Shown one piece after another: positions 6,707 to 22,885 of a stretch of DNA of 64,000 nucleotides. The DNA is taken from assembly GCA_015059925.1 (NCBI GenBank), contig SUZL01000005.1, positions 27,891-91,890 of the forward strand, read 5' to 3'. This stretch comes from Rikenellaceae bacterium (GTDB lineage Bacteria > Bacteroidota > Bacteroidia > Bacteroidales > Rikenellaceae). Position 1 is the first letter of the stretch, and each line of letters opens with the position of its first letter. Position numbers and translations under genes: made by a program. The notes under the pieces were generated by a model. That model made no database searches. It was not told where the DNA came from and saw only the letters and a list, made by a program, of their open reading frames with translations.

Positions 6707-7366
6707 TTATACCGAGAACGCCGAAAATACCTTTTTAATTGTCGGGAACGAGTTTTTTATTTGCTCCTCGATGCAGTCGGGAGCCACCCACTCGGCCCTT
6801 ACGATTCCCTCCTCGCGCTGTGGCGTGAGCTGTCGGCTAAGCGCCCTCATAACATACCACGCCGTCAGTTTCAACTCCCACTCACCATATATATTATACG
6901 CGTGAAGTGTCGCAGCGAGCAATCGCCCCACCTCGGCAACCTTCACTCCCGTCTCCTCCTCGGCCTCGCGCGCGGCACACTCCTCGAAACTCTCTCCCTG
7001 CTCGCGGTGCCCTTTGGGCAGATCCCAGCGACCGTTGCGGCTGATCATCACCACCTCGCCTCGATCGCTCTCCACCACACCGCCTGCGGCCTCCACCCAC
7101 TTCATCTGGCGGGCAAATGCCTCGAACGCAGCCAGAGGCTCCGGGCTTAAAATCTCAACCGAGTTGTAAGTTTCTAAAAAAGTGATTACCTTCGCTCTTG
7201 CAAGCGGCCCTTCGGCCTCGGCCGATACGACATAATACCCCTCGCGGGGCTCTGCCGCGAAGAGCAGCTCTCTCTCGGCAAACCATACGCGAATCGAGCC
7301 ATCCGCCTCGATGGGGATGCCTACATTATGCTCGCTGTGGGTATAGTAATTGGCTTTTGAGTGCAT
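6707..7366 (-). CDS. NUDIX hydrolase
   Basis: Nudix box GHREQGESFEECAAREAEEETG preceded by WDLPKG. Start codon uncertain. Confidence 0.88.
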   Translation of the reverse strand: MHSKANYYTHSEHNVGIPIEADGSIRVWFAERELLFAAEPREGYYVVSAEAEGPLARAKVITFLETYNSVEILSPEPLAAFEAFARQMKWVEAAGGVVESDRGEVVMISRNGRWDLPKGHREQGESFEECAAREAEEETGVKVAEVGRLLAATLHAYNIYGEWELKLTAWYVMRALSRQLTPQREEGIVRAEWVAPDCIEEQIKNSFPTIKKVFSAFSV

Positions 7367-7425
7367 TGCTTGGCAATTTGATTAAGCAAAAATAGTGAAT
7401 TGATGTTAAACCTCGAATAGAATCT

Positions 7426-9549
7426 ATGAAAAAATTAACCTTTATTATGGCTATTACAGCATTGGCGCTCTCATCGTGCGCTCCCAAGGAGTCGAGTGCG
7501 CCGCTTTCGATCGACAACCAACTCTCGGCAGAGGAGATCTCTTTAGCCCGCTTCACCCCCGAGGTGATGTGGAAGATGAGCCGTCTGGGCTCGGCTACCC
7601 TCTCGCCCGATGGCAAGAGTGCGCTCTACACCCTCACCCGCTACAATATGGCCGAGAATCGCGGCCTGACGCAGATCTACCTGCGCGATATGGCCTCGGG
7701 CGCGGAGACCGCTTTGACGGACAATCAGTCCAACAACTCCGATGCACAGTGGAGTGCCGACGGCAAAACCATCTACTTCACCTCATCGCGTAGCGGCTCG
7801 ACGCAGCTCTGGCAGATGGCCGCCGACGGATCGTCGCCCAAGCAGATTACCGCCATCGAGGGTGGCATCGAGGGTTACGGCGTAGCTCCCTCGGGCGACA
7901 AGCTCTTCTACATCAAGAAGGTGCAGGCCGCCGACATCAAATCTTCGGACGTTCACAAGGATATGGACAAGTCGCAGGCCCGCATCTACGACGATTTGAT
8001 GGTGCGCCACTGGAACTATTGGGACGAAGGCCAGTATAGCCACATCTTCGTGGCCGACATCGAGGGCGGCAGCGTAAAGAACGACAAGGACATCCTCGGT
8101 GCCGATGCCGCTTGGGATGCTCCGCTGGCACCCTACTTCGACGTAGCGGAGATCGCGTGGAGCAACGACGGCAAGCGTCTGGCCTACACCTGCAAGCCCC
8201 TGACGGGCGTGGAGTACGCCATCTCGACCGACTCTGACATCTTCATCTACGATACGGAGGATGGCTCAACGCTCAACATCAACAAGATCAAGACCGCAGC
8301 CGGAATGCGCATTATGGAGTTCGTCGGCTACGACCGCTACCCCGTATGGTCGCCCGACGACAGCCAGCTGGCTTTCTGCTCGATGGCAACCCCCGGCTAT
8401 GAGTCGGACAAGGATCGCCTCTTCGTCTTCGACTTTGCCACGCAGCAGATGAAGGATCTCACTCCCGACTTCGACCACAGCGCCTCGAACGTGATCTGGA
8501 AGGACAACTCGACCCTCTACTTCCTCTCGGCCATCGAGGGTACGCAGCAGGTGTGCAAGGTGGGCGTGAATGATGCAAAGGTCGATGTGATCACTTCGGG
8601 CGACCACGACATCGCCACGATGAGCATCGCTGGCGACGAGTGCCTCGCAACGCTTATGACCATCAGCCGCGACAAGGAGATGTACAGCGTAAACCTCGCC
8701 GACGGCTCACTTAAGCAGCTCTCAAATATCAATGCCCACGTCTACGACAACGTAAAGATGGGCCAAGTCGAGAAGCGCTGGATCAAGACCACCGACGGCA
8801 AGGAGATGCTCACTTGGGTTATCCTGCCGCCCGACTTCGACCCCACGAAGAAGTACCCCACCCTGCTCTACTGCGAGGGCGGCCCTCAGAGCGTCGTATC
8901 GCAGGGCTGGAGCTACCGCTGGAACTTCCAGCTTATGGCCGCTCAGGGCTACGTCGTCGTAGCTCCCAACCGCCGTGGCTGCCCCTCATTCGGCTCGGAG
9001 TGGCGTGAGCAGATTTCGGGCGACTACGCAGGCCAGAACATTCAGGACTACTTGGCCGCCATCGACACGGTTGCTAAGGAGCCTTGGTGCGACACCGACC
9101 ATCTTGGCTGCGTGGGTGCATCCTACGGTGGCTACTCGGTTTACTACCTCGCGGGCAACCACGACGGCCGCTTCAAGGCCTTCATCTCGCACTGCGGCAT
9201 CTTCAACTTCGAGTCGATGTATGGCGAGACCGAGGAGCTCTTCTTCATCAACCACGACTACGGTGGCAACTATTGGGATAAGTCAAACGCTGTGGCTCAG
9301 CGCTCATACGCCTCATCACCCCACAAGTTCGTCGATCGCTGGGACACCCCCATTATGATCATCACGGGCGAGTACGACTTCCGCATCCCCTACACCCAGT
9401 CATTGCAGGCCTTCACCGCCGCCCGCCTCAAGGGCCTCGACTCGCGCCTCGTTGAGTTCGAGAACGAGGGCCATCAGGTCTTCAAACCCCAGAACTCAAT
9501 TGTCTGGAACCGCGAATTCTTCGGCTGGCTTGACAAGTACCTGAAATAA
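7426..9549 (+). CDS. S9 family peptidase (DPP5-like), lipoprotein
   Basis: Lipobox LSSC, beta-propeller repeats, GGPQ, nucleophile GASYGG, GEYDFR and NEGH catalytic motifs. Confidence 0.92.
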   Translation: MKKLTFIMAITALALSSCAPKESSAPLSIDNQLSAEEISLARFTPEVMWKMSRLGSATLSPDGKSALYTLTRYNMAENRGLTQIYLRDMASGAETALTDNQSNNSDAQWSADGKTIYFTSSRSGSTQLWQMAADGSSPKQITAIEGGIEGYGVAPSGDKLFYIKKVQAADIKSSDVHKDMDKSQARIYDDLMVRHWNYWDEGQYSHIFVADIEGGSVKNDKDILGADAAWDAPLAPYFDVAEIAWSNDGKRLAYTCKPLTGVEYAISTDSDIFIYDTEDGSTLNINKIKTAAGMRIMEFVGYDRYPVWSPDDSQLAFCSMATPGYESDKDRLFVFDFATQQMKDLTPDFDHSASNVIWKDNSTLYFLSAIEGTQQVCKVGVNDAKVDVITSGDHDIATMSIAGDECLATLMTISRDKEMYSVNLADGSLKQLSNINAHVYDNVKMGQVEKRWIKTTDGKEMLTWVILPPDFDPTKKYPTLLYCEGGPQSVVSQGWSYRWNFQLMAAQGYVVVAPNRRGCPSFGSEWREQISGDYAGQNIQDYLAAIDTVAKEPWCDTDHLGCVGASYGGYSVYYLAGNHDGRFKAFISHCGIFNFESMYGETEELFFINHDYGGNYWDKSNAVAQRSYASSPHKFVDRWDTPIMIITGEYDFRIPYTQSLQAFTAARLKGLDSRLVEFENEGHQVFKPQNSIVWNREFFGWLDKYLK

Positions 9550-9556
9550 CATTTAC

Positions 9557-9600
9557 GAGTAATAAAAAAGGGCATCGTGAGATGCCCTTTTTTATTACTC
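9557..9600. terminator. Bidirectional intrinsic terminator
   Basis: 20-bp perfect inverted repeat GAGTAATAAAAAAGGGCATC-GTGA-GATGCCCTTTTTTATTACTC between convergent genes. Confidence 0.92.
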
Positions 9601-11196
9601 ATATATCAGTTCAAAATCATCCAACCACAACACACTCTGCGTACTACCCGTAAAGTAATCTCCGTAGCGTGAAGCCGAACATACAATTATAATATGCGTC
9701 GGCACGCGGTTCGTAGCTCGGTAATCAAGCGGGATGGTGAACTCGGTCCAGTTATCAATGCTCTTTGTCAGCGGCATCTCGCCATAGGCAATCACCGCCT
9801 CACTGTTAATATCAAACGCAGTCTCCTCAATTCGACGCGTAGCAATCTCTACTGGGCTCTCATCCGTTCCGCCATACGTCGCCGCATCCCAATCTCCCAG
9901 AGCGATGTATATCATTCCAATATCCGAGTCGCCCTCCTTGATCTCCATTCCCGGCGGCTGCGTGGTAATGCGATCAATCGCGCCACAATTATACTTCAAC
10001 CAACCCTTCAGGGCCGTAGGACGTGCCGTAAACGGACGGCCGAAATTAACAATACCGTGCGTACCGTCATTCTTAACATACGAGCCGACAAATAGGTTTC
10101 CGGCAGCGAACTTACCGATACCGAATACGCTCGCGAACTTCGATGACAACCGCGCCGAGAGCTCTCCCGACGAGCCGGGCCGCACGTCAGCCACTCCCTC
10201 TGTCAGAGTCTCATTCACGATGCTTGCACCAACATTTCCCGTACCCCAGTAGGGATCACCGCCATCGGCATAGGGATATACAATGTTGTTCTTCTTGCAC
10301 CAGAGCTCAAAGCCTCCATTCTCGAGCGGCAACGCTCTCTCAGTGGTAAGCTCCACCACAGCCGACAGATCCTCGTTCGAGTAAGCAACAAACTCATAAC
10401 TCGTCAGCTCCTCCAACCCCGAGACCTTCGTCTTGAAAGTTCCGCCCGAAATCGTTGGCTTGGGGGCATCAATCCACTCCTCGCTTCCGCTCTTGCGGTA
10501 ACGGAATCCTACATCAGCACCCTCCTTGGCCTCTCCATATAACCACGCCACATTAGCCCACGCATCGGCCTGCGTAATCATCACAGAAACCTCCGTCTCC
10601 AGCACATAAATCTGCCAGCGCTCCAAATCGCCACCCAGCGCAGGATAACGCAGATAGACATATCTCACCGAACGGAAATCCGTCAACTCCTCCATCGACG
10701 GAGTCATCGTCGTAACCTCCTTGGGACCAAGCTTCATCGACGTAACGCGGATGTTGGTCAAGTCCGTTCCTTTGGGAACGTATGCCCTGACGGTGCGATT
10801 GTTTTCGTCAATCTCCGACTGTCCCACCTGCCCCGCCACCGAGAAATATCGCTCAATGGGCTGCTCTGCCTTGATGGTCCAAATATAATCCTGATACAAC
10901 GACAGCGTAACCTCAATCGGCGAACGCATATCGAACACGCCCGTGAGCTCCATCGATGCCATCGCGCCCTCGGTCAGCTCAACCTCCGTGATCTCCACCT
11001 CCGATATATCAGTCTGCTCGTCGAGCGTAAGCATCACCTCTCTCCTCTGCGCGTCAATTGCCGCACGAAACCCTTCGCCACGCAGGCTCAGAATCTCCAA
11101 CTCCTCGACGGGATAGGGGATTGTGTTCTCAATACAACCCGTAAGACACACCGCCCCCATCACCATCCACGCTATACGTTTAATCAAGTTCATCAT
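9595..11196 (-). CDS. PCMD domain-containing lipoprotein (Ig-like and FN3-like N-terminal domains)
   Basis: Lipobox LTGC; C-terminal PCMD motifs AAGNLFVG, FGRPFTARPTAL, SASRYGDYFTG, LWLDDFEL. Confidence 0.75.
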   Translation of the reverse strand: MMNLIKRIAWMVMGAVCLTGCIENTIPYPVEELEILSLRGEGFRAAIDAQRREVMLTLDEQTDISEVEITEVELTEGAMASMELTGVFDMRSPIEVTLSLYQDYIWTIKAEQPIERYFSVAGQVGQSEIDENNRTVRAYVPKGTDLTNIRVTSMKLGPKEVTTMTPSMEELTDFRSVRYVYLRYPALGGDLERWQIYVLETEVSVMITQADAWANVAWLYGEAKEGADVGFRYRKSGSEEWIDAPKPTISGGTFKTKVSGLEELTSYEFVAYSNEDLSAVVELTTERALPLENGGFELWCKKNNIVYPYADGGDPYWGTGNVGASIVNETLTEGVADVRPGSSGELSARLSSKFASVFGIGKFAAGNLFVGSYVKNDGTHGIVNFGRPFTARPTALKGWLKYNCGAIDRITTQPPGMEIKEGDSDIGMIYIALGDWDAATYGGTDESPVEIATRRIEETAFDINSEAVIAYGEMPLTKSIDNWTEFTIPLDYRATNRVPTHIIIVCSASRYGDYFTGSTQSVLWLDDFELIYE

Positions 11197-11203
11197 CTAC
11201 TTT

Positions 11204-13612
11204 TTAGTAAACCCACTGGAAGTCATCAATATACATCACATTTTTAGAGCATCCGCACATATAATCACCATATGCGCTACAAGCTGCTGATATTACAATA
11301 CTATATTTCGCTGGTTCCTTCGATGGATCCGATGGGTTAGAGGGGTTAGTAACTTTATCATAAAACTCAAATGGGATATCCACCGTCACCATTGAATCTC
11401 CATCCGTTGACTTATCTATCAACAATGAAGCATAACCAATAATTGCGCCACTTCCTGCAAGTGATGTTATTGCGGTCGGCTCAAAGCATCCCGTTGGAGC
11501 AGATGTTCCCGATGTAACACCTGGGCGTGCCGACCAATCTACTATCAAGGCGTAAATACGAGCAACATCCTGATCACCTTCCTTCAATGGAAAATTTCCC
11601 GTTTCATCCTTATACAACGCGATATCCGCTTTTCCAACTGTTGCGTGATATTTTACACGCAACGCAGTCGGGCGAGCCTGCCAAGTATAAGGTTGGCCAA
11701 ATCCTACCGTACCAGCCATACCATTCATCGTAAATGTTCCAGTGAATAAGTTTCCTGACGCCAATACTCCAGCCATTGCAGAAGAAGATGTTAGTACAGC
11801 CGCCTTACTTCCCCCATTTCCATCCTTAGAGCCTTGTGTACACAAGTTTGTTTTGGCCCAATTATTTCCACTACCCCAGAATGACGCATTACTATTATTC
11901 TGCCCCCAGCACGATAGTGAAGAACTTTCAAAATCTGCATACGGAATCGGCTGTTCCACTGTTGTTGTAAATGTTCCACTCGGTCCATAGTCCGAACCAT
12001 CAACTACCAACTGATACTCATAAGTACCGTTAGCAAAAATACTCTTATCCGAGTCTGGTGTATAGATTGTCTTACTATTAACATTGGTACCTTCACTCCA
12101 CGCTGCAACAGATGTTCCACCGTAAACATTACCCGTAGTATTTGAAAGACCAACCGTTACCCAATCGCCATAGCTGCCAGTGCCTTTCACTTTACGGAAC
12201 TTTACTGCTACATTTGTTGCCGTCTGGGTTACTACAGCATTAAATTTAGCTGTATTGAGCCACAAATCTATATCAGTAGGCTTCGTCAATCCCTGATTCA
12301 AGAAAGTAGTTCTAAACTTTCCAACCTCTGTCATACCATCGTAAGCCGAGAGTCTAAAATCCTGCTCTCCTCCGGCAAGTGTAGCAAAAAACGCAGGCTT
12401 TACTTCAACATTAAACTCCTTACCTTCATTTCCAATAGGAGTGACTGTAATCATATTTGATCCTTCAGACACATAATTACCCTTATCCCACAACTTCTCC
12501 TCATTCAATCCAAAACCATCAATCTTATTAATCGATGTTACATTAAATGATATATCAGAAGTGCCTACAACATAAACATTATCATTATCTTCATCCTCAA
12601 TCCAAGTATTTCCGTCTAACGGGATAATCTCAGGCTCAGGCTTAAATGTAATTTGCTCATCAAACGTCTCTACCGTCTCATCCACTTCCACATCAATCGT
12701 AATACTACCATCAGGCAACTGCGAGTATCTAAACTGCAATGCATAAGCCTTACCGGGCTCAACCACAATCTGACCAGCGCGATCAAACTTAGTTACCACA
12801 CCCCCTGGAGCTGTTGTGCCTTCATTCGAATCTGCCGAGTTCGATCCCTCCGTTGAGCCCCCCTCTGCTGCAGTCGCAGGCTGATCCTCCGCAGGTGCAA
12901 CGTGCTCACCTGTGATCACCCAAGAGATTGTCCTGACACCCTTAGGCATAAGGAAATAAGCAGAATCCTTTCCCACATACGAGGCTGTGCTACCACTTAC
13001 TGCCGTTCCGAAATCCAGACGATCCACTCCTGTTGAAGCTGCATAGGCTGTATCAAAATCCGTCTTTTTCTTATCTTTAACTTCGGTTGGGTTATTACCC
13101 AATTGCATTGCAGCAAGACTAATTCCCACATTACGCAGGTATTGATTCTCACCCTCATCTTCATCAAGGACAACACCCACTTGCACGTGCTGAGGATTGC
13201 ACTCAACCTCTGCCATAACAGAACCTCCAGCAGCGACCGCTACGCCTTTTTCACCGATATAATAGATCTTTTCACGATAATCTTCAACATCCGAACCTTT
13301 GAACTTTGTTGTATGGTCCTTATCACGAGCCTCAACCTTGAATGTATAATCTCCCGCAACCAACGCAATTTTCTCGGGGATCACATCGTCCTCTGTGTAA
13401 ATTCTAACAAGACGATTATCCTCATCGTAGATTCTCACACGCAACTCCTCGGGTGTAAAATCATCACCCACACGCGTATGCTCTTTTGTCGAGATACTAA
13501 GGCTCACGCTACCCATACCCTCTTCTGTTGAGATCTGGTCGAGTCCCTCTTGGCAGGCCGCAACAATCAGTGCCATAGCCGCCAACAATATATATTTTAA
13601 TATCGTTTTCAT
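11204..13612 (-). CDS. DUF4493-like + PCMD domain lipoprotein
   Basis: Lipobox VAAC, TR motif, LVAGDYTFKV and VEC..QHVQVGV DUF4493-like segments; C-terminal SGNLFTG, FGQPY..ARPTAL, YGDYMCG, MYIDDF. Confidence 0.7.
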   Translation of the reverse strand: MKTILKYILLAAMALIVAACQEGLDQISTEEGMGSVSLSISTKEHTRVGDDFTPEELRVRIYDEDNRLVRIYTEDDVIPEKIALVAGDYTFKVEARDKDHTTKFKGSDVEDYREKIYYIGEKGVAVAAGGSVMAEVECNPQHVQVGVVLDEDEGENQYLRNVGISLAAMQLGNNPTEVKDKKKTDFDTAYAASTGVDRLDFGTAVSGSTASYVGKDSAYFLMPKGVRTISWVITGEHVAPAEDQPATAAEGGSTEGSNSADSNEGTTAPGGVVTKFDRAGQIVVEPGKAYALQFRYSQLPDGSITIDVEVDETVETFDEQITFKPEPEIIPLDGNTWIEDEDNDNVYVVGTSDISFNVTSINKIDGFGLNEEKLWDKGNYVSEGSNMITVTPIGNEGKEFNVEVKPAFFATLAGGEQDFRLSAYDGMTEVGKFRTTFLNQGLTKPTDIDLWLNTAKFNAVVTQTATNVAVKFRKVKGTGSYGDWVTVGLSNTTGNVYGGTSVAAWSEGTNVNSKTIYTPDSDKSIFANGTYEYQLVVDGSDYGPSGTFTTTVEQPIPYADFESSSLSCWGQNNSNASFWGSGNNWAKTNLCTQGSKDGNGGSKAAVLTSSSAMAGVLASGNLFTGTFTMNGMAGTVGFGQPYTWQARPTALRVKYHATVGKADIALYKDETGNFPLKEGDQDVARIYALIVDWSARPGVTSGTSAPTGCFEPTAITSLAGSGAIIGYASLLIDKSTDGDSMVTVDIPFEFYDKVTNPSNPSDPSKEPAKYSIVISAACSAYGDYMCGCSKNVMYIDDFQWVY

Positions 13613-13616
13613 AGTA

Positions 13617-15821
13617 TTATTTATTACTCGACTTTATAAGTTTTAATTCTTTAGTCGTTTCTCCATTGTTATCTCCGACTGTCAATATAAATATTGCACT
13701 TTCCTCAGACTCTAAAAGCTTAGATAGCATTGGCATAAAAGTGGTAATCGAGAACTCCGCCTCCATCTCTCCTTCCCAAGATGTTCTGCCATTGGGCAAG
13801 AATCCCAGTCCTTGCAAACCAGCACTCATATTACCTGGAGTAATTAAATCAATATGTGATCCAAGACCAACCCTAGCCAACTCTTCTTCCGACAACTTTT
13901 CACTTACAATATCAATTTCAAATTTAGTAAAGCCGCCCTTTGCTGTAGATATAGCCAAGATTGTACATTTAAGATCTTCTGTCAGCTCTTGTTCTTCATC
14001 AATATTATGCTCCAGCCACTTAATCGTCGGCGGATTATCATTATACTCCACATCTCCCGATCCTGAACCGCCGCTACCGGCTGAGCCAATGTTACATCCC
14101 GTCAAGCCACCGCTCTTAATCACCAAGTCAGTGTACTTCATTCTGTCCTCAGAATCCTTCGTCCAGACCTTAATATTATGTGTTCCGGGATAAGAATTCT
14201 GCAAAGCAGTCATTCCGTGATCGCTTAACTTAACCACAATATTAGGCGCTGTAGTCGCAGGATTCTCAACCACAAAATAACTCACTTCCGTGTCTGCATC
14301 AGCAAGCGTCGATACTCCTGAATAGAATGTAACTCGTCCTTCCGTATAGCCCGCCTTTTCCAATGCTGCCATAAGATCGCTATTATCTGACGATATCACA
14401 GCATACACCTCCTTGATAGTGGTATTATTAGAGGGCGTTACCGTCATCTGCAAGTTAGCATTCCACTTACCCATTTGAGTGTCATAGCCATCCTTGGCTA
14501 TCACAGCCTCATCGTCATCCACGGGAATATTAAACTGTACACTCGGAGCCGACGGGTCAATATCAGGCACTTCCTCCTCTTGATAGGTGTTTGTGCTAAA
14601 GAACAACTTCTGCACATCAACATCAATCGTCTCGTCAAATACATAACTATCGATCGTCACCTCAAACTGTACATCTCCCTCCGTATTATGGTCGATATCG
14701 ATCGAGATGCGACGCCACTGCGCAGCCTTCACTCCTTTAATCTCACGCTCCATCGAAACGTAAGTAAGATTTTTGTAGTAACTACTATTATTTCCATTTG
14801 TAGCCAAATCCGTTATTGCGGCCTGCAAATTATCAATCGAAACATTCAGATAGACGCCCTCCATCTTAAAGACCATCGTGTTTCCGCTTCCATCATTTGC
14901 TCCCGCGTGATCCTTGAAATAGACGAACGGGCCGCCCGAAATAGTTGTAACGGCACTCTCTCCGGTTCCTGTAGTAGTCTCTACACCGTGATTTGAACTA
15001 TATGGGAAAACGTACGAATATGTCTCATTCTCTTCAGGCTCATCAGGCTCAATCGTTACAGTTGTCTGCAAGCCAGGAGCTTCTTCAGTATCTTCTGCTT
15101 TTGCCTTGACATCAAGAGAATTTGTTTCATCAAACCACTCCAACATATCCGCCGACATCTCAACCGTCACAAGCGTCTGCGCCAACTTACAAGTAATCTC
15201 CACAGGAGTCGAAGTGGCATTACCCTCCAAATCCTCGGCCGACACTACCGTAACAGTATTAAATCCCATATAATATGCAGGAGTCGTCTGATTCGTATCA
15301 GTATTCTCATCCTCAGCTATCACATTGGGGATATTTGCACCCTTAGTCGCATCCTTATACGCCCACACGGTGTACTCTCCCGGCGGAAGCACAATACCCT
15401 TAAGCTTAAGTTTTGATCCATTAATCAACGTAACCTCGGTACCTTCTCCTGTATTCAATGCTGTAACATCAGCATAGGTCATTCCCGTACCCTGCGTATC
15501 TCCATTAATATCCACAACCTCGCCATCAGCATCGAACACTTCGATCCAATAGTTATTGAGATTCTCCTCTACTCCATTCGGATTAGGCACTCGATATTCA
15601 TTACCATTCTCACCATCCGTGCGTGTCGCCGAATTCGAGCCTCTGTCCAGATGCTCGTTATCGGTATTCACCGTCAGCGACTCAATCACCAACGAGCCCC
15701 ATTGTCCACTCTGATTTGTAGGCTTCTTCGGCTCGTCCAACTCGTCAAGACTGCACGACACGAGCGTCAGCACCGCTACCGCGGGCAGCAATCTTTCGAT
15801 GTAACGTCTAAATCTTTTCAT
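13617..15821 (-). CDS. DUF4493-like lipoprotein with C-terminal extension
   Basis: Lipobox LVSC, TR motif, LPPGEYTVWAY, PAYYMG, ITCKLAQTLVTV; C-terminal GFTKFEIDI..LGFL..FSITTFMPML module. Confidence 0.65.
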   Translation of the reverse strand: MKRFRRYIERLLPAVAVLTLVSCSLDELDEPKKPTNQSGQWGSLVIESLTVNTDNEHLDRGSNSATRTDGENGNEYRVPNPNGVEENLNNYWIEVFDADGEVVDINGDTQGTGMTYADVTALNTGEGTEVTLINGSKLKLKGIVLPPGEYTVWAYKDATKGANIPNVIAEDENTDTNQTTPAYYMGFNTVTVVSAEDLEGNATSTPVEITCKLAQTLVTVEMSADMLEWFDETNSLDVKAKAEDTEEAPGLQTTVTIEPDEPEENETYSYVFPYSSNHGVETTTGTGESAVTTISGGPFVYFKDHAGANDGSGNTMVFKMEGVYLNVSIDNLQAAITDLATNGNNSSYYKNLTYVSMEREIKGVKAAQWRRISIDIDHNTEGDVQFEVTIDSYVFDETIDVDVQKLFFSTNTYQEEEVPDIDPSAPSVQFNIPVDDDEAVIAKDGYDTQMGKWNANLQMTVTPSNNTTIKEVYAVISSDNSDLMAALEKAGYTEGRVTFYSGVSTLADADTEVSYFVVENPATTAPNIVVKLSDHGMTALQNSYPGTHNIKVWTKDSEDRMKYTDLVIKSGGLTGCNIGSAGSGGSGSGDVEYNDNPPTIKWLEHNIDEEQELTEDLKCTILAISTAKGGFTKFEIDIVSEKLSEEELARVGLGSHIDLITPGNMSAGLQGLGFLPNGRTSWEGEMEAEFSITTFMPMLSKLLESEESAIFILTVGDNNGETTKELKLIKSSNK

Positions 15822-15855
15822 ATCTTTATGTTTTTATTCTCTCGTTAATTTTCGA

Positions 15856-17112
15856 TTACGCTGCGGACTGATCTCCCGAGCCAGTTCCTGCTCCCGAGCC
15901 AGTTCCTGAACCAGTTCCAGTTCCCGAGCCCTCAGAGCCACTGCCGCTCTGCGAGCCGCTTTGCGTATTATCTTCCTCAGTCTCCTCGGGGCGCAGCTCA
16001 ATGATTTTAACCTCTGCCTCACCATAGTCATTATATGTAATGGTCAGACCAGCGCTTCCGGCAGTCTTATGTCCCACGCGCAGTGTATACATCGTACCTG
16101 CCGCCAAATCAATTGCTTTACCAGCGTCATCCACAGGCTTAATCTCAGCGGGCTCTCCGTCAGGCTTTCCATTCTGGGTGAAATACACCTTCACGCCATT
16201 CTGCTTTTTCGCCCATCCGCTCAACTCCAGCACCGTCGTAAACTCACTCTGCTGCGTCTCAACCAATCCATTGCTCTTTCCACCGTCGATTTTGATCGGC
16301 TCGCTCACATTGAAGAAATAGAGCTTATCCGCATCCGAATTCCACGCGATGACCTCATTCGTATCCACAGGTGTCGTTGCTGTTCCTCCAGCTACCGTGC
16401 TCGTTGTGCTCTTCGTGGGATTGAACTTAAACTCCCCATCGGCCGTATGAATCACCAACTCCAACTCGGTGTAGTAATCCATCAGCGCCTGCGTCGTCTG
16501 CAACTTAAAGCAGCTGTTCATCAACTTCATCTCGGCCGCAACCTCAATTGTCTCGAGCGCCTTCACTTGGAACTCATCGTTCTCTGCCGTCTCATACACA
16601 AAGTACGGATTATTCACCGCCTCCGCAATCTTGCCAGCCTTCATCTCGGGGCGGCTCTCGATGCGTGCTTGGTAGTAACCGCGCTGCAACTCGATGTTCT
16701 CATAATCCGTCATCGGATCCCAGCCTCTGGCGTAAGGTGTCTCCGACAAGTTGTCCTTGTCATCCCCCTCTTTGGTTGATGGATCGTCATACGTTCCCCA
16801 TATTCGCAGAGCAAGTTTGCTCTTGTCAATCTCGGTTGTTGGATTACCGTTCGCATCCTTCGTGTAGAGCAGATTCGTAATAAAATCGGGAAGTTTCGCC
16901 TTCCCCTCGGGCACCTGCTCTCCATCGGTTGTCTCGCCCGCACGGGTGATCTCCTCGTTTACGACCCCATCGACCTCGCACTCAAACGCGATTCGTCCCG
17001 GGTCGCTCGTCACGCGCTCAGGAACAAGCTGATCCTCAAAATTGCAGGCAGTCATAGCCATAGCCACCCCCCACAACGCGAGCGCACGAATTGATAATTG
17101 TTTAATTTTCAT
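15856..17112 (-). CDS. DUF4493-like pilin-type lipoprotein with Gly/Ser/Thr tail
   Basis: Lipobox MTAC, TRA motif, LQRGYYQA, NPYF, MKLMNSCFKL; low-complexity C-terminus. Confidence 0.6.
   Translation of the reverse strand: MKIKQLSIRALALWGVAMAMTACNFEDQLVPERVTSDPGRIAFECEVDGVVNEEITRAGETTDGEQVPEGKAKLPDFITNLLYTKDANGNPTTEIDKSKLALRIWGTYDDPSTKEGDDKDNLSETPYARGWDPMTDYENIELQRGYYQARIESRPEMKAGKIAEAVNNPYFVYETAENDEFQVKALETIEVAAEMKLMNSCFKLQTTQALMDYYTELELVIHTADGEFKFNPTKSTTSTVAGGTATTPVDTNEVIAWNSDADKLYFFNVSEPIKIDGGKSNGLVETQQSEFTTVLELSGWAKKQNGVKVYFTQNGKPDGEPAEIKPVDDAGKAIDLAAGTMYTLRVGHKTAGSAGLTITYNDYGEAEVKIIELRPEETEEDNTQSGSQSGSGSEGSGTGTGSGTGSGAGTGSGDQSAA
15872..15960 (-). repeat. Degenerate 6/18-bp tandem repeat encoding (GSGT/GSGA)n
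   Basis: CCCGAGCCAGTTCCTG occurs twice, with further variants; encodes SGSQSGSGSEGSGTGTGSGTGSGAGTGSG. Confidence 0.8.
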
Positions 17113-17134
17113 TTGGTTTGCTATTTTGTTTAAT

Positions 17135-19174
17135 TTAATTTGCTATTGAAACTTTGATATTATCGAGATAAAGCCAAGCGTCACTATTACCCACGGTTCT
17201 TCCATGAGAATAAACATCCCACGCTAGACGATACGTATTATTAGGACAATTCTTAATAATATACGAAGTATATTGGCTAATATCATCATAACTACCACCT
17301 ACTATAGTTATGCCAGAAGTAATAGGATTGCTCAATGTAGTATTTCCATCAGGACTCTGAAGAGCTCCTCCTGTTTTCTTACCTCCTATAACACCTGAAG
17401 TACTATGATATCCCCAAGCAGCATAATGCGTATGTTTAGTGTCGTCATTTGCAAATGCCCAATTAAAAGAAACCATAACATTCACTGCGGATGAAATATT
17501 TTGAATTTTAGGAGAATCTAGTCTGCCTGCATAACGAGCAGTTCCCAATATTCCAGCCGCCTCTGTTCTAATATCAACTCGAATAGCTTTGCCTGCAGAT
17601 GCACCACATCTAGCGCCAGTCCACCCAGGAAGACCAGCGATAGATTCTAAGGAAGTGCCTGATACATCCGTAGAAAACGTGTCCCCATTAACATTATCGT
17701 TATAAGAAAATCCTTTGACATTACTAAAATCCTCATAAAACAAATATGGCACTACCATTTTTGCCTGATTCATTTTAGAAATCTGTAGAGGAGTATCCAA
17801 TACTTTAATTGTTGTGTCTTCAAACTTTGTATCAGTAGTTGACAACGGAATTGTACGATTTTGTATTGATGCGTGAGCTGATATATATGATATCCCTAAT
17901 GATGATGGATTACCTATTACTGTAACAGTAAACGTCTGAGGGCTATTATTATCTGGTGTAAGCGAAATAGAATTCGCAGATACTATATCAGTAGTAAATG
18001 GTTTTATAAATGTATAACCATCAGCAGAAAGTATAATATTAGATAGCTGCTCACCCAAGTTATTTTTTTCAACTATAAACTTCAAGCCAGCACCTTCTCC
18101 GTAAGGTGAAGAAGGAATTGTCAAATCCACAGGTGTAATTCGACCTGCAAAGAGAGTTTTATTAATTGATGCTGATTTAATTTCTGCCGCGGGAAGGCCT
18201 GCCGAATCATACACTTGGAACGAAATTTCTCCATTGAGTACTTCGGGCTTTATATGCACCCACACATATCGGCCATTCGCATTCAAGAGATTCTCGTCTG
18301 GCAAATCGATAGTAACCTTATTGCTTTGGCCACTCCACACGACCTCCCCGGTCTTAACATTAACCTTCGCCGTTCCGCCGACAACCGCCTGCGGGAACGT
18401 TATCTCCAGTCGTTTCACATCGCGTCCCAAAAGATTTCTTCTCTCGGGCACACGGATTCGCATCATATGGAGCAGGTGCTTCATTCTCAACTCGGGCTGA
18501 CGCCACACCTCAATACTTCCGCTACCATCGCGCTCGACAAGTGCCGCACCCGACACCTCGCCCCACATAATATCGTACGCAGGGTTGTACTCCCCGCTCT
18601 GATTAGCCGACAAAGTGTAAGTAACCTCTGTGCCATTGAGCGTAATTCCACTGACCGCGCTCTCTACCCCCTGCTTATTTCGGCTCTTGGGAGAGGGATA
18701 GATAGCGTAATAAGTGTAGTCATAATCGCGATCCATCGTATTGGCCACCGTCGCTGTGAAATCCGCCGAATGATAGTCGTGATTAAAATGCGCCAACGAG
18801 AAAACCGTCTGCGCAAAAGTCCATTCCTGCGGACTAACAGCTGGCTCAGCCCACACCATAATCTGATCGGCAACTTCTTTTCCCTCCTTCTCATCATAAT
18901 AACAAGACCAAAAGATAGGTTGTTCGGTGTCTGTGGCAGGCCCCAATTCGGTACGCGTTGAATTATCCGCTGCAGGCGCAAGCTCCGCTCCGACCTCGAT
19001 CACATCATCCACATTCTCCATCGCGCGCGTAGCACCACCCTGCGAAGCACGAATCACAAGCTCAACAGGCTGCTGCACGGCACTCTCGCCCTCACTCTTC
19101 TCGAGGCTACACCCCATAAGGAAGATTGACGCAAAAATCAAAAGTATGTAATTTCTTATATGCACTTTTTTCAC
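17135..19174 (-). CDS. Fimbrillin (Mfa/Fim-like) family lipoprotein with variable C-terminal domain
   Basis: Lipobox LMGC, TRA/TRT motifs, YYAIYP, Q.G.YNP.YDIMWG and MKHLLHMMRI typical of fimbrillin-like proteins; ends WLYLDNIKVSIAN. Confidence 0.7.
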   Translation of the reverse strand: MKKVHIRNYILLIFASIFLMGCSLEKSEGESAVQQPVELVIRASQGGATRAMENVDDVIEVGAELAPAADNSTRTELGPATDTEQPIFWSCYYDEKEGKEVADQIMVWAEPAVSPQEWTFAQTVFSLAHFNHDYHSADFTATVANTMDRDYDYTYYAIYPSPKSRNKQGVESAVSGITLNGTEVTYTLSANQSGEYNPAYDIMWGEVSGAALVERDGSGSIEVWRQPELRMKHLLHMMRIRVPERRNLLGRDVKRLEITFPQAVVGGTAKVNVKTGEVVWSGQSNKVTIDLPDENLLNANGRYVWVHIKPEVLNGEISFQVYDSAGLPAAEIKSASINKTLFAGRITPVDLTIPSSPYGEGAGLKFIVEKNNLGEQLSNIILSADGYTFIKPFTTDIVSANSISLTPDNNSPQTFTVTVIGNPSSLGISYISAHASIQNRTIPLSTTDTKFEDTTIKVLDTPLQISKMNQAKMVVPYLFYEDFSNVKGFSYNDNVNGDTFSTDVSGTSLESIAGLPGWTGARCGASAGKAIRVDIRTEAAGILGTARYAGRLDSPKIQNISSAVNVMVSFNWAFANDDTKHTHYAAWGYHSTSGVIGGKKTGGALQSPDGNTTLSNPITSGITIVGGSYDDISQYTSYIIKNCPNNTYRLAWDVYSHGRTVGNSDAWLYLDNIKVSIAN

Positions 19175-19194
19175 AAATGAACATTATTGGTACG

Positions 19195-19223
19195 CAAAAA
19201 TAAAAACATTGATTTATCGCAAA
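19195..19223 (-). promoter_or_regulatory. Putative sigma-A promoter for the lipoprotein operon
   Basis: Minus strand TTTG-N17-TATTTTTG, about 20 bp upstream of the ATG at 19174; spacer is short. Confidence 0.5.
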
Positions 19224-19373
19224 AAATAATTTCAACCAACGCGTTTTATTTAATAATGAAACGACGTTTCCACCTCGCTAACTTCTTAAAAGATGGGCAA
19301 CTGCGTTACTTACTATTCATTATGAAATTATATGCGTTCATTGAAATTTAATCTTCGTGTGCGAGTTTTTATA

Positions 19374-19381
19374 TATATTTG
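19374..19381 (+). promoter_or_regulatory. -7 element for the beta-barrel pair
   Basis: TATATTTG 22 bp upstream of ATG 19404. Confidence 0.55.
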
Positions 19382-19403
19382 CGACACTGAATTTTGGACG
19401 ATA

Positions 19404-20210
19404 ATGATTTTTTGCAAAAAAAATATCTGTTTTCTTTTCATCGCATTGCTGTGTATGATCTCGTCGCAGGCCGTCGGACAGGAGCTCGTGAGCCAACCCG
19501 ATTCCCTCTCCCGCCCTCTCACCCGCGCCGAGAAGATCAGCCGCCGAGGTGTTACGAATATGACGAACCGATTCGTCGCCAAGGGCTCGTGGATTATGGG
19601 AGCCAACCTCGCCTACTCGACACACGTCAATGAGAACTACTCTTTGGCCCTGATCGAGGGCATCAACTCCGAAGGATATACCTTTCGCGGAAGTCCGATG
19701 ATTGCCTATGCCATCCGCGACAATATGGCTCTCGGTCTGCGTGGCACGTACTCACGTTCTAATCTGACGGTCGATAGCGCCAATCTGAAATTTGGCGACG
19801 ACGAGACCGGCACCGAGATCACCGTCAACGACTATAAGACCGTACGCCACACCTACTCCGTAGCGGCCATCTGGCGTCAATACATCCCGCTGGGCCGCAG
19901 CAAACGCTTTGCCATCTTCAACGAGATTTCGCTCGGCGCAGGAGGCACAGAGTCAATTTTCGCGGCCGACCAGCCAATCAAGGGTACATATGAGGAGGGC
20001 TACACCGTCTCACTCGGTATCTCGCCCGGATTGATGGCCTTCGCCACCAACGACGTTGCCATCGAAGTGAATGTGGGCGTTATGGGAATTAATTTTACAG
20101 ACGTAAAGCAGGTTCACAACCAGGTTCAAACGGGCAAACAACGCTCGAGTAATATGGCCTTTAAGGTCAATCTGCTCTCAATCGGTGTTGGAGTATCCTT
20201 TTATTTGTAG
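19404..20210 (+). CDS. Outer-membrane beta-barrel protein (paralog 1)
   Basis: Signal peptide from ATG 19404 (MIFCKKNICFLFIALL..SQA), alternating beta-strands, C-terminal GVSFYL beta-signal. Confidence 0.7.
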   Translation: MIFCKKNICFLFIALLCMISSQAVGQELVSQPDSLSRPLTRAEKISRRGVTNMTNRFVAKGSWIMGANLAYSTHVNENYSLALIEGINSEGYTFRGSPMIAYAIRDNMALGLRGTYSRSNLTVDSANLKFGDDETGTEITVNDYKTVRHTYSVAAIWRQYIPLGRSKRFAIFNEISLGAGGTESIFAADQPIKGTYEEGYTVSLGISPGLMAFATNDVAIEVNVGVMGINFTDVKQVHNQVQTGKQRSSNMAFKVNLLSIGVGVSFYL

Positions 20211-20215
20211 AGAAG

Positions 20216-21010
20216 ATGATGCAACGAAGTATAATATTAAGTCTACTGGTTATATTCCTGTGCTGCACAGGGGCTTACTCTCAGCAAGCCACGTCGGGAC
20301 ACAAGGCTCGACGCATCGATCGTGGCATCAACACAGGCATCCCGTTCGGCTACAAGGGTGAGGTCATTATGGGTACTACGGCCTCTTACGGCACCCTTAC
20401 CAGCGAGGACTCAAACATTCTGGTCTATCTTGACAATATCAATATCGACGGCACGATAACCACCGTAAAACCCTTCATCGGCTACTTCTACCGCGACAAT
20501 CGTTGCATCGGAGTCCGCTTTGGCTATCAGTACATTGATGGCGATTTGGGGAATCTTGATCTCGACTTGGGCGAGCAGAACGATATTTCGATGAGTGTCG
20601 AGGGTTTGCAGCTTATCAACAATAGTATGTCAGCTTCTATTTTCCATCGCTCATACGTCTCACTCGACAACAAAGGCCGCTTTGGTCTATTTGCCGAGAT
20701 CGAGGCTTCGGCACAGATGGGCAAGGGCGAGTTTCTGAACAGCTCGGGCGAAGTTCCCAAATACACCAAGAGCGAGAATATGAAGTTCGAGCTTGGCTTC
20801 AACCCCGGCGTTGCAGTCTATATCTTTCCGTCGGTGTGTGCCACCGTATCGATCGGACTGGGCGGTGTTAAGTACGCCTCTATTACGCAATACGATGAGC
20901 TGAACAACAAGGTCGGCTCACGCGAGGCATCGAAGATGCAGTTCCGTCTGAATGTCGCCGACATCAACTTCGGAATGGTTATCCACCTTTGGAGCAAGAA
21001 GAAAAAATAA
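20216..21010 (+). CDS. Outer-membrane beta-barrel protein (paralog 2)
   Basis: Signal peptide, amphipathic strands; segments align by eye with paralog 1 (PFIGYFYRDN vs PMIAYAIRDN; LGFNPG vs LGISPG). Confidence 0.7.
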   Translation: MMQRSIILSLLVIFLCCTGAYSQQATSGHKARRIDRGINTGIPFGYKGEVIMGTTASYGTLTSEDSNILVYLDNINIDGTITTVKPFIGYFYRDNRCIGVRFGYQYIDGDLGNLDLDLGEQNDISMSVEGLQLINNSMSASIFHRSYVSLDNKGRFGLFAEIEASAQMGKGEFLNSSGEVPKYTKSENMKFELGFNPGVAVYIFPSVCATVSIGLGGVKYASITQYDELNNKVGSREASKMQFRLNVADINFGMVIHLWSKKKK

Positions 21011-21035
21011 TGTAAGATCGAATAAAAGTTAAACG

Positions 21036-21072
21036 CGAACGAGGGTGCCCAACGTCTGGGCACCCTCGTTCG
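21036..21072. terminator. Strong hairpin between convergent units
   Basis: 16-bp perfect stem CGAACGAGGGTGCCCA-ACGTC-TGGGCACCCTCGTTCG; U-tracts are weak. Confidence 0.7.
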
Positions 21073-21113
21073 TTAAGGCCTTTGCACCTAAGCCGCGGCG
21101 ACAAAGCCACCTG

Positions 21114-21563
21114 CTACAAAGCCACCTTGAAGATACACTTCTTAACGTGGCCCTCGCCCAGCATCGGGGCGTGTCCATCCTCGGGGAAGAGGATCGAGAA
21201 CTGTCCCTCGCCGACCGAGTAGAAGCACTGCGGAATATCGGTAAAGAGCTGAATATCCTTCTGCTCGTCGAACTCAGTCTCCGCCGTCAGGCAATCCTTC
21301 TTCTCGCTCCAGCCGAAGACCTCGTTCGGACCGCTGAGCAGCAGCTGAATGTCGATATACTTGCGGTGCAACTCCAGACGTGCTGCGCTAACCTCGCGCA
21401 GGTCCAACTCCTGCACCATAACGTAGATATTGTCGCCATCGATGTCGTGACGACCACAGGGCAGCGATGCCACATCGTTGTTATCGATAAAATCGAACAC
21501 CGCCTGAAAACGCGGATGAAGCGCCGCGTACTGCGCTTTGTTTTTAAGTGAATCGAGAATCAT
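21114..21563 (-). CDS. YhcH/YjgK/YiaL (NanQ-like) family protein
   Basis: LELHRKYIDIQ and FSILFPEDGHAP motifs. Confidence 0.9.
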   Translation of the reverse strand: MILDSLKNKAQYAALHPRFQAVFDFIDNNDVASLPCGRHDIDGDNIYVMVQELDLREVSAARLELHRKYIDIQLLLSGPNEVFGWSEKKDCLTAETEFDEQKDIQLFTDIPQCFYSVGEGQFSILFPEDGHAPMLGEGHVKKCIFKVAL

Positions 21564-21574
21564 AACTATTTGGG

Positions 21575-22885
21575 TTAATTGGTTTTACGATTAAATTTCA
21601 ATCTCACGAACACAGGGTAGTGATCCGAGTATTTCACCCCTCGCTCTACCTCCTCGACGCCCTCCTGCAGCTCCATTGCCTCGCGCAACTGCTCTTCGGT
21701 TGGGGCCTCCATTCGGTTGCCGTACCTTCGCACCAGCACCGTATCGGCATTCTCGCCTCGGCCCTTTACCGCCTGCTCCAACGTCCACGAATCGACAACT
21801 TCGTACGACAACGGTTCAAACTCCTCGGTGGCAAAGACATAGTCGATTCGGAGCATATCGAAGAATCCGCGATATGTATTCGAGTAGCCTCGTCCCACCT
21901 CTCGGAACGCATCACTGAGTCCTCGTGCCACACGGCGATAGGTGTACGACACGGGCGTATCGTTAAAATCACCGCACACGATTGTCGGATACTGCGACTG
22001 CTCGATCATCGCCTTGAGCGTATCGGCCTGCTCGGCTCGCACCTTGTTATTCTCGGCCAGACGGTTAATCATATTGCGCACGCGCGACAGACTATCATCA
22101 TCTAAATAGTCGTGATTCTCAATAAACAGACTCTCGTCGCGGCGAATTGCCGTCGTGTGGAGGTGCGAATTGAAGATCCTTATCGTGTCGTCCTTGAGCT
22201 TATTCTTAATCACCACATCGGCCCACACGAAGTTTATCAGCGTATCCACCCTGCCGGCCCTAACTATCGGATAACGGCTGTATATCGCGGGGCTCAGATT
22301 CACCCTCGACAGCGATCGCGGCATCGGGTACAGCGGCTCAAACAGCGAGTCGGCAATATCGCTGAAACCCATCTCCTGCAAGCAGAGAATATCGGGGTTA
22401 AGCTCCTTAATCACCTTTGCCACCGAGTCGATACAGCGTTCGCCATCGTCGTCGATGAAGCTACGCACGTTGTACGTCAGCACCTTCATCGCACTTCGAT
22501 CGTACTGCTTTCTGAGGTTGGGCTCGGTATAAACTCGTCGCAGCTCAACCTTGTAAAATAGCGATAGCTGAAACACTCCGCTGAGTGCCACCAACATCAT
22601 CGGCACGGCCACCCACAGTCGCCAACGCAGAAACCAATATAGCGTCAGCAACGTCTGTGCGATATATACAAACGGAGCTATCAACCCCAACGTCGAGAGC
22701 TCGTTATACTCGCGCGGGTCCAGTCGCGGCACGATGAGCGTAAGGATAAAGAGCGTCGCAACGCCTATCGTTACCACACCCATCACCACGTCGATCAGAT
22801 TTCCGATCGCCGAACGCTTGCGTCGTGTGCGACGCGACGAGGAGTATGTTTTTCCGTAGTAATCAGCCATAACGCCCCCGAGCAA
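21575..22885 (-). CDS. Endonuclease/exonuclease/phosphatase family protein with N-terminal TM segments
   Basis: TYNV, LCLQE, GDFND, RIDY and SDHYPV motifs. Start may be GTG/ATG near 22870. Confidence 0.88.
   Translation of the reverse strand: MLGGVMADYYGKTYSSSRRTRRKRSAIGNLIDVVMGVVTIGVATLFILTLIVPRLDPREYNELSTLGLIAPFVYIAQTLLTLYWFLRWRLWVAVPMMLVALSGVFQLSLFYKVELRRVYTEPNLRKQYDRSAMKVLTYNVRSFIDDDGERCIDSVAKVIKELNPDILCLQEMGFSDIADSLFEPLYPMPRSLSRVNLSPAIYSRYPIVRAGRVDTLINFVWADVVIKNKLKDDTIRIFNSHLHTTAIRRDESLFIENHDYLDDDSLSRVRNMINRLAENNKVRAEQADTLKAMIEQSQYPTIVCGDFNDTPVSYTYRRVARGLSDAFREVGRGYSNTYRGFFDMLRIDYVFATEEFEPLSYEVVDSWTLEQAVKGRGENADTVLVRRYGNRMEAPTEEQLREAMELQEGVEEVERGVKYSDHYPVFVRLKFNRKTN

Follow-up and report, generated by a model that had tools for sequence, protein, structure and literature searches.

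Seven linked genes in a ruminant-gut Alistipes

The stretch of DNA analysed here (the window) comprises 64,000 nucleotides from a Rikenellaceae bacterium (assembly GCA_015059925.1, contig SUZL01000005.1, positions 27,891 to 91,890 of the forward strand), and all coordinates given below count from its first letter. It contains five co-directional open reading frames (ORFs) on the minus strand, A to E, each of which encodes a predicted lipoprotein; the window otherwise carries housekeeping genes. An earlier note on this DNA had proposed that four of the five proteins (A to D) bear the N-terminal propeptide of a type V pilin, in the form of a short hydrophobic strand followed by Thr-Arg (TR), and that the fifth (E), which lacks the pair, is their permanently lipid-anchored partner. 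Comparison with related loci showed that the conserved unit is made up of seven genes and not five, the other two being the small divergent genes O1 and O2 (Table 1), and that A to D belong to an uncharacterised and highly variable gene cassette.

Table 1. Genes and sequence features of the locus, with positions in the window. Residue numbers refer to the encoded protein.
Feature	Position	Strand	Description
Gene A	17135-19174	minus	679-aa lipoprotein: fimbrillin-like N-terminal half, immunoglobulin-like (Ig-like) middle, jelly-roll C-terminus
Gene B	15856-17112	minus	418-aa DUF4493 lipoprotein, pilin-like unit only
Gene C	13617-15821	minus	734-aa DUF4493 lipoprotein with C-terminal Ig-like domains
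Gene D	11204-13612	minus	802-aa lipoprotein: DUF4493 at ~32-323, Ig-like at ~350-550, PCMD jelly-roll at 567-799
Gene E	9595-11196	minus	533-aa lipoprotein: Ig domains like those of a surface glycan-binding protein (SGBP), then PCMD
O1	19332-20210	plus	small secreted protein; start probably at 19404; weak matches to outer-membrane beta-barrel families
O2	20216-21010	plus	second small secreted barrel-like protein, paralogue-like to O1, which it adjoins
S9 peptidase lipoprotein	7426-9549	plus	PD40 propeller; adjoins the module
Variable low-GC cassette	11308-19495		A to D and promoter region; from DNA comparison with locus L053
A, first strand (VELVIRASQ, residues 37-45)	19040-19066	minus	DSSP strand in the AlphaFold2 (AF2) model
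A, T49-R50	19025-19030	minus	site of the earlier note; start of disordered loop 47-73, inside a subfamily insertion
A, T73-R74	18953-18958	minus	[TS]-[RK]-[TS] site; family-wide; end of the disordered loop
B, T56-R57	16942-16947	minus	after strand GRIAFECEV, 39-47 (16972-16998)
C, T66-R67	15621-15626	minus	after strand GSLVIESLTV, 42-51 (15669-15698)
D, T46-R47	13472-13477	minus	after strand MGSVSLSIST, 33-42 (13487-13516)

The closest relatives of the A to E locus were found in Alistipes metagenome-assembled genomes and its sequence was present in bovine, goat and sheep gut metagenomes; the source genome is that of a ruminant-gut Alistipes (Rikenellaceae). A genome scan with protein C alone as the query gave no loci, and related loci were recovered with an alignment of D. 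Fifty-five of these came from Alistipes/Rikenellaceae and one from Odoribacter, and a further locus was found in Parabacteroides distasonis. Two gene orders were seen. In the first, which is that of the window, O2 and O1 are divergent from A-B-C-D-E; in the second, found in the majority of Alistipes species, A. putredinis DSM 17216 among them, the genes are arranged A-C-D-O1-O2-E on one strand. O1 and O2 were linked to the lipoprotein module in most of the 57 loci, irrespective of the gene order. The P. distasonis locus (L058, 7812-18580) held five genes of the DUF4493 family together with a homologue of O1/O2 (E = 8e-50) and an orthologue of protein E (35% identity), and a DUF3575 barrel was present as well, as was a divergent AraC-type regulator.

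A conserved strand and Thr-Arg pair behind the lipobox

Type V pilins are confined to Bacteroidia, as were all the loci recovered here, and have a signal for signal peptidase II with a lipidated Cys. They are surface lipoproteins in which an Arg-specific protease cuts the flexible loop between strands beta1 and beta2 (the cleavage Arg being R49 in Mfa1, R43 in Mfa3, R54 in Mfa4 and R46 in FimA); the lipidated beta1 strand leaves and the groove is filled by the C-terminal donor strands of the next subunit, and an anchor pilin without a cleavage site stays lipidated (PMC13655056, PMC5789003). In processed pilins the beta1-beta2 loop is long and flexible, and beta1 bears three or four hydrophobic side chains (PMC5789003). 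Translation of the ORFs verified every residue and coordinate that had been assigned to the Cys, the strand and the TR pair of A to D (R50, R57, R67 and R47, respectively). The lipobox Cys (Cys22 in A, Cys23 in both B and C, Cys20 in D and Cys21 in E) is followed by acidic residues in A to D and was invariant in alignments of the DUF4493 and A families, and A to D are probably lipidated at this residue. In A, the strand residues V37, L39, I41 and A43 form an alternating hydrophobic pattern.

The bare motif is common. A pair [ST][RK] lying 13-52 residues after a lipobox-like Cys occurred in 47% of unrelated lipoprotein-like ORFs from the 57 related loci, a control set that includes six-frame ORFs, and in 60% of the orthologues of E. 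Because the motif is found at this level by chance, the argument rests on the conservation of alignment columns and not on the presence of the pair. Residues 1-330 of D were searched against 1.84 billion representative proteins, which gave 114 relatives, and 104 non-redundant N-termini, those of B, C and D among them, were aligned. Like the Cys, G34 was invariant in this DUF4493 alignment, and the strand followed the consensus G-x-[LV]-x-[LFM]-x-[IV]. Column T46 held Thr in 78 and Ser in 17 of the sequences, column R47 held Arg in 79 and Lys in 12, and the next residue was Ala in 59, Ser in 21 and Thr in 11. A pair of the form [ST/P/A][RK] stood just after the strand in 99 of the 104 members, with the basic residue a median of 26 residues past the Cys, against a background of 1.4% per position; eight of the 13 sequences that had appeared to be exceptions proved to have the pair a few columns away.

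The TR position singled out by the earlier note was also conserved among the direct orthologues of the individual proteins: TRA was present in 10/10 orthologues of B, TR in about 11/11 orthologues of C, and TR was invariant across 27 orthologues of D down to 30% identity. The pairs of B and C align with the TR column of the DUF4493 family. At the P. distasonis locus all five DUF4493 proteins have T-K-A in place of T-R-A, and the pilins of this species likewise have Lys at the cleavage position (PMC5789003). This occurrence of Lys in both the DUF4493 proteins and the true pilins of one species is the best indirect evidence that the two share a protease. The N-termini of A to D are thus well supported as pilin-type propeptides by their conservation, by the predicted structures described below and by the species pattern of Arg and Lys, and the earlier note is supported in part, in that the strand and TR are conserved family-wide and sit in pilin-like predicted folds. 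Cleavage of A to D would be expected to follow the conserved Arg.

Five of the 104 DUF4493 members (P0174, P0182, P0192, P0195 and P0211) have the strand with no basic residue after it, and these are possible uncleavable, anchor-like variants of the family.

For protein A the choice of site had to be revised. R50 is present, as the earlier note had said, but the basic residue conserved throughout the family is R74. Its column held Arg in 62 and Lys in 6 of the A relatives (68/68 basic), it is flanked by T73 (Thr in 55, Ser in 12) and T75 (Thr in 62, Ser in 6), and the site directly precedes a conserved core, 'W..D.I.VWA'. The R50 column was occupied in 40/68 relatives, with Arg in 34 of the 40, and absent in 28/68; it lies in an insertion of about 25 residues, most of which is carried by 34 A-family sequences. 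Within residues 37-74 (18953-19066) the strand and TR seem to have been duplicated in tandem, as the two units VELVIRASQGGATRA and VIEVGAELAPAADNSTRT. About half of the family has this apparent duplication, which gives those proteins two candidate cleavage sites. In the AF2 model of A (mean predicted local distance difference test, pLDDT, 81; predicted template modelling score, pTM, 0.72) the two Arg residues mark the two ends of the disordered loop (pLDDT <50), and according to this model a cut at either would detach the lipidated strand.

Although protein A itself had no match in Pfam, 10/68 of its relatives matched PF13149 (Mfa_like_1), with a best E of 6e-14. The top matches of the A model in the Protein Data Bank (PDB), found with Foldseek, were 3ufi (E = 7e-8) and 3t2l (E = 6e-7), both with probability 1 and with TM-scores normalised to the target of 0.50-0.52, and next came 4h40 and 3pay. 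At the C-terminus, the jelly-roll that ends in '..YLDNIKVSIAN' resembled 2xom and 3m1h, and with them a carbohydrate-binding module (CBM) of family 61 and the Kgp cleaved-adhesin domains. The model therefore supports a two-sandwich pilin fold for A, as a predicted fold, and an architecture like that of tip pilins, which typically bear C-terminal ligand-binding domains (PMC12632263).

B, C and D matched DUF4493 (PF14900; E = 8.6e-11 for B and 7.5e-14 for C) with bit scores of 42.5, 52.5 and 63.0, respectively, against a Pfam gathering cutoff of 27, and none of the three matched a pilin family (PF06321, PF08842, PF13149 and similar). In addition, D scored 89 bits for PCMD (PF13201), above the gathering score. 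None of A, B, C and D had a meaningful match when its sequence was searched against the PDB. In the AF2 model of D (pLDDT 73) the first strand is followed by a loop at 43-55, in which pLDDT falls below 50 at 46-50, then by two sandwich-sized blocks of strands that extend to about residue 330, and then by the Ig-like domains and PCMD. A Foldseek search with this model returned PCMD structures first and then 3up6, 4h40, 5cag, 3ufi, 3gf8, 4qdg and 3pay; the matches to pilin structures had E = 1e-6 to 6e-5, probability 1.0 and TM-scores normalised to the target of 0.3-0.4, for an aligned range that was not reported.

The fimbrillin-like structures from Bacteroides and Parabacteroides (3ufi, 3t2l, 4h40/BF2867, 3up6 BovFim2C, 3pay, 3gf8 and 4qdg), described as putative cell adhesion proteins, were thus the best matches of the A model and ranked high among those of the D model. 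Among the type V pilins of Bacteroides, 3pay, 3gf8 and 4qdg are putative anchor pilins and 3up6 is a tip pilin (PMC5789003). These structural-genomics proteins share with the locus an origin in gut Bacteroidales. Unlike them, A has two further domains and the duplicated strand and TR, and the match of D has no counterpart at the level of sequence.

Anchor pilins end in a donor hairpin of two antiparallel strands with a conserved Trp near its end (PMC5789003). No conserved Trp about 10 residues from the C-terminus was seen among A to D. B does have a conserved two-strand hairpin, LTITYNDYGEAEVKIIELRPE ('..LTI.Y.D...E..IELNP(D/E)'), followed by a tail rich in Gly, Ser and Thr, and its orthologues, 259-305 aa in length, end right after '..ELNP(D/E)'. 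C ends in an Ig-like domain and D in PCMD, and from its sequence B would be the only plausible strand donor or adaptor at the locus. The tail of B (15856-15990) is of low complexity and is absent in most orthologues; that of locus L003 is much longer and rich in D-T-T repeats, which we take to resemble Bacteroidetes O-glycosylation sites. B also has a Cys inside its first strand (Cys45, 16978-16980), found in 9/12 orthologues, and a second one (Cys201, 16510-16512), found in 10/12, and a disulfide between the two could tether the first strand as in the anchor Mfa2.

Protein E, O1/O2 and replacement of the A to D cassette

Residues 12-175 of E, which include its two N-terminal domains, were homologous to the N-terminal domains of BT1761 (8a9y chain T, E = 1.3e-8), the SusC-docked SGBP of the levan utilisome of B. 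thetaiotaomicron, and residues 296-531 form a PCMD (PF13201; E = 1.2e-42, 147 bits, above the gathering score). The C-terminus of E matched 3hbz (BT2081) in the PDB, and the PCMD relatives of D and E were 3hbz, 4het (BT3745), 4jrl and 3s30; the two proteins end in PCMD jelly-rolls like those of BT2081 and BT3745. A putative carbohydrate pocket has been described in BT2081 (PMC2954218). By sequence homology E does not have the two-domain fold of pilins, and in place of a C-terminal donor hairpin with a conserved Trp it ends in '...SVLWLDDFELIYE', which aligned to the last core strand of the PCMD in 3hbz. Unlike the levan utilisome of BT1761, the locus has no SusC or SusD gene, and O1 and O2, at about 250 aa, are far smaller than SusC. 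With this BT1761-like N-terminus, the PCMD and a conserved Arg of its own (see below), E does not fit the part of a lipid-anchored partner of the Mfa2/FimB type that the earlier note had given it. On this evidence E is a conserved partner and not a pilin. It may well stay lipidated. Its orthologues have a nearly invariant C-I-x-N-D-I-P-Y-P directly at and after the Cys.

O1 had no Pfam match above threshold and no PDB match. Weak matches were obtained to BBP2, DUF3575 and OMP_myx_plus, and none of its 756 relatives carried a name.

The genes of the locus differ sharply in their conservation. When the window was compared by blastn with the closely related locus L053, the flanks (7002-11308 and 19495-21600) aligned at 87-89% identity and nothing aligned between them, which puts the breakpoints within the final ~100 nt of D and in the 5' part of O1. 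At the protein level the identities were 34% for A, 31% for B, 35% for C and 38% for D, compared to 95% for E, 88% for O1, 95% for O2 and 90% for the S9 peptidase, and the GC content of the cassette was 45% compared to 54-55% for the flanks. This comparison indicates that a cassette of about 8 kb carrying A to D has been replaced between closely related genomes, with A to D as the diversifying, presumably exposed parts and E, O1 and O2 as the conserved parts.

Mosaic variation was also seen on a smaller scale. In the A relative P0048, residues 1-76 were 93% identical and the remainder 38%. Among close relatives of A and D, the signal peptide, the propeptide and the first ~110 residues of D (18947-19174; 13283-13612) were 82-99% identical and the rest 38-65%, a pattern that points to recombination immediately downstream of an N-terminal module that is constant.

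A pilus-like assembly and its alternatives

On balance we favour, at a probability of roughly 0.55, the reading that the locus encodes a type V pilus-like surface adhesin module, which forms a short hetero-oligomeric complex rather than a long fimbria. A to D would be exported to the surface as lipoproteins, where an Arg/Lys-specific protease encoded elsewhere would cut each of them after the conserved Arg, freeing the lipidated first strand and opening the groove. This protease may be a clostripain-like enzyme, as in gut Bacteroidales, since in gut Bacteroides a surface enzyme of this type has been credited with the maturation of type V pilins (PMC12632263). A, C and D, with their C-terminal binding domains (jelly-roll/CBM-like, Ig-like and PCMD, respectively), would be tip-like subunits that accept a strand and cannot donate one, and B, which is short and ends in a hairpin, would serve as strand donor or adaptor. 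The complex would be held at the cell by the conserved protein E and/or the putative O1/O2 barrels. A to D would thus be the exposed, fast-diversifying parts and E, O1 and O2 the conserved base, and the split between variable and conserved genes fits a layout of this kind. A short complex is what would be expected of a locus that has no stalk pilin and no Mfa2/FimB anchor.

The Mfa and Fim pili of Porphyromonas gingivalis (Mfa1-5 and FimA-E) share with this locus the lipoprotein precursors, the alternating-hydrophobic beta1 anchor strand and a flexible beta1-beta2 loop in which a conserved Arg is located 25-50 residues past the Cys. In both, too, tip-type subunits are part of an operon of some five genes, outside which the protease is, or for this locus would be, encoded. 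Unlike these systems, the locus in the window has neither a FimA/Mfa1-type stalk nor an Mfa2/FimB anchor, three of its four subunits are DUF4493 proteins whose relation to pilins is, by sequence, limited to the propeptide, and its partners are a PCMD lipoprotein and two barrel-like genes.

Several of the results weigh against a pilus-like assembly. Neither a stalk nor an anchor pilin of the canonical kind was recognisable at the locus. C-terminal donor strands are lacking in A, C and D, which end in extra domains, as tip subunits do, and B is absent from most of the Alistipes loci that were compared. Since there is no FimA/Mfa1-type stalk, and the only conserved C-terminal hairpin is that of a protein missing from most Alistipes loci, a long fimbria is unlikely. 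When a diverse DUF4493+PCMD profile was searched against the PDB it found PCMD entries only and no pilin, and hhalign aligned the DUF4493 domain with the pilin domain of the A family over residues 1-49 only (signal peptide, strand and TR; probability 88%); consequently, no deep homology between DUF4493 and the pilins is claimed. The model of D is of moderate confidence and generic two-Ig-domain proteins were also among its Foldseek matches, so the predicted fold of D is less secure than that of A. The description of O1 and O2 as barrels is a weak call that rests on weak matches.

The last of these points concerns E. In the window E has an RR pair (R51-R52, 11041-11046), and R52, which lies 31 residues after the Cys, is Arg in 37/41 orthologues; the residue before it is Thr or Ser in 18/41. 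The statement of the earlier note that the fifth protein lacks TR is therefore correct for this allele of E and does not hold for its family, and across the family the contrast between four proteins with the pair and one without does not appear to be robust. R52 just precedes a conserved strand, 'TVTLxLDE', with a Lys at the aligned position in BT1761, and the region aligns without gaps, unlike the indel-rich loops of A to D.

An explanation that takes in the conserved Arg and dispenses with any oligomer is that it is a release site, at which a surface clostripain-like protease cuts A to D off their lipid anchor, so that they reach the medium or vesicles as soluble proteins that bind glycans or adhere. 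Proteases of the fragipain type do cut and set free many surface lipoproteins of Bacteroides (PMC12632263), the C-terminal domains resemble carbohydrate-binding modules (PMC2954218), and the lack of donor strands in A, C and D and of any stalk or anchor pilin is in keeping with shedding. We nevertheless regard shedding as unlikely: the strand before the Arg is itself conserved and forms, in the models, an integral strand at the edge of a pilin-like sandwich, its loss would leave an open groove of the kind that is refilled in the known systems, and the linkage to E, O1 and O2 suggests a complex that is bound to the cell.

It is also conceivable that no cleavage takes place. The Thr-Arg pair would then be structural, locking the first strand through, for example, a cation-pi contact or a salt bridge, and all five lipoproteins would stay lipid-anchored in a utilisome-like, glycan-binding assembly around O1/O2. 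The likeness of E to the SGBP of the levan utilisome, with its own conserved Arg before a strand, would fit such an assembly, and so would the PCMD and CBM-like domains, which point to glycan binding (PMC2954218), as well as the two Cys residues of B, which could tether the first strand as in Mfa2 (PMC5789003). However, the loops that hold the Arg of A to D are indel-rich and, in the models, disordered, which is atypical for a structural contact, and this Arg is swapped only for Lys, as expected of a protease site. In P. distasonis the change to Lys has its parallel in the true pilins of the species (PMC5789003), and the locus has no SusC/SusD genes. We consider uncleaved proteins quite improbable. 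The least likely explanation by some distance is the canonical type V pilus of the earlier note, with four processed, polymerising subunits and E as an uncleaved Mfa2/FimB-like lipid anchor, for although the E of the window has no TR and E is far more conserved than A to D, as a base component might be, E lacks a pilin fold by sequence homology (its N-terminus being BT1761-like and followed by PCMD), ends in a core strand of PCMD and not in the Trp-bearing donor hairpin of anchors (PMC5789003) and has [ST]R at R52 in 18/41 orthologues, and no stalk pilin is encoded at the locus.

The pilus-like reading can be taken further, as a speculation that we consider unlikely: the DUF4493/PCMD/O1-O2 module could be a distinct, stalk-less branch of type V-like assembly, in which O1/O2 and E form a platform where Arg/Lys-processed, hypervariable adhesins dock by strand exchange. 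No helper proteins are known for the type V system (PMC5789003). If such a branch existed, type V-like systems would have in O1/O2 and E their first candidates for membrane proteins that act as helpers or anchors, and a mechanism would be defined by which gut Bacteroidales vary their surface through the swapping of cassettes. Independently of this, DUF4493 is a sizeable and unstudied family of Bacteroidales surface proteins, of which a full-text search found no mention in the papers covered, and a type V pilin propeptide in it would extend the logic of protease-primed strand exchange to proteins annotated as a domain of unknown function. The linkage to O1/O2 and to an SGBP-like PCMD lipoprotein and the wholesale replacement of A to D provide testable handles on the adhesive surfaces of commensals, and may be relevant to the way in which type V-like assemblies are held in the outer membrane.

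The earlier note had stated that the maturation protease is not in the window, and this was confirmed: no C11 or C25 enzyme and no Arg-specific protease was found in the 64 kb, the peptidases of which are the S9 lipoprotein, an M23 peptidase and a rhomboid. Use of gingipains is not known from Alistipes. Processing of the fragipain/doripain (clostripain-like) type shares with the locus an Arg-directed cut near the lipidated N-terminus of surface lipoproteins, a cut that is predicted here; unlike those systems, no gene for such a protease lies inside the window. The S9 lipoprotein was considered for this role and is an unlikely candidate, because it is a serine peptidase of the prolyl-oligopeptidase family and not Arg-specific and its adjacency can be explained by inversion. 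In either gene order the S9 gene adjoins the module, a pattern better matched by a module that has been inverted alongside a fixed neighbour than by a functional link.

Gut metatranscriptome contigs with at least 90% identity covered parts of B, C, D, E and O2, which suggests that the genes are transcribed, this being a contig-based observation in which carry-over of DNA is possible. In the AT-rich gap between A and O1 there is an imperfect inverted repeat of 33 nt (19228-19260 and 19316-19348), the arms of which are 82% complementary and 55 nt apart. The element TATTTTTG, some 30 nt upstream of where A starts, is from its consensus taken to be a promoter element of the Bacteroides -7 type.

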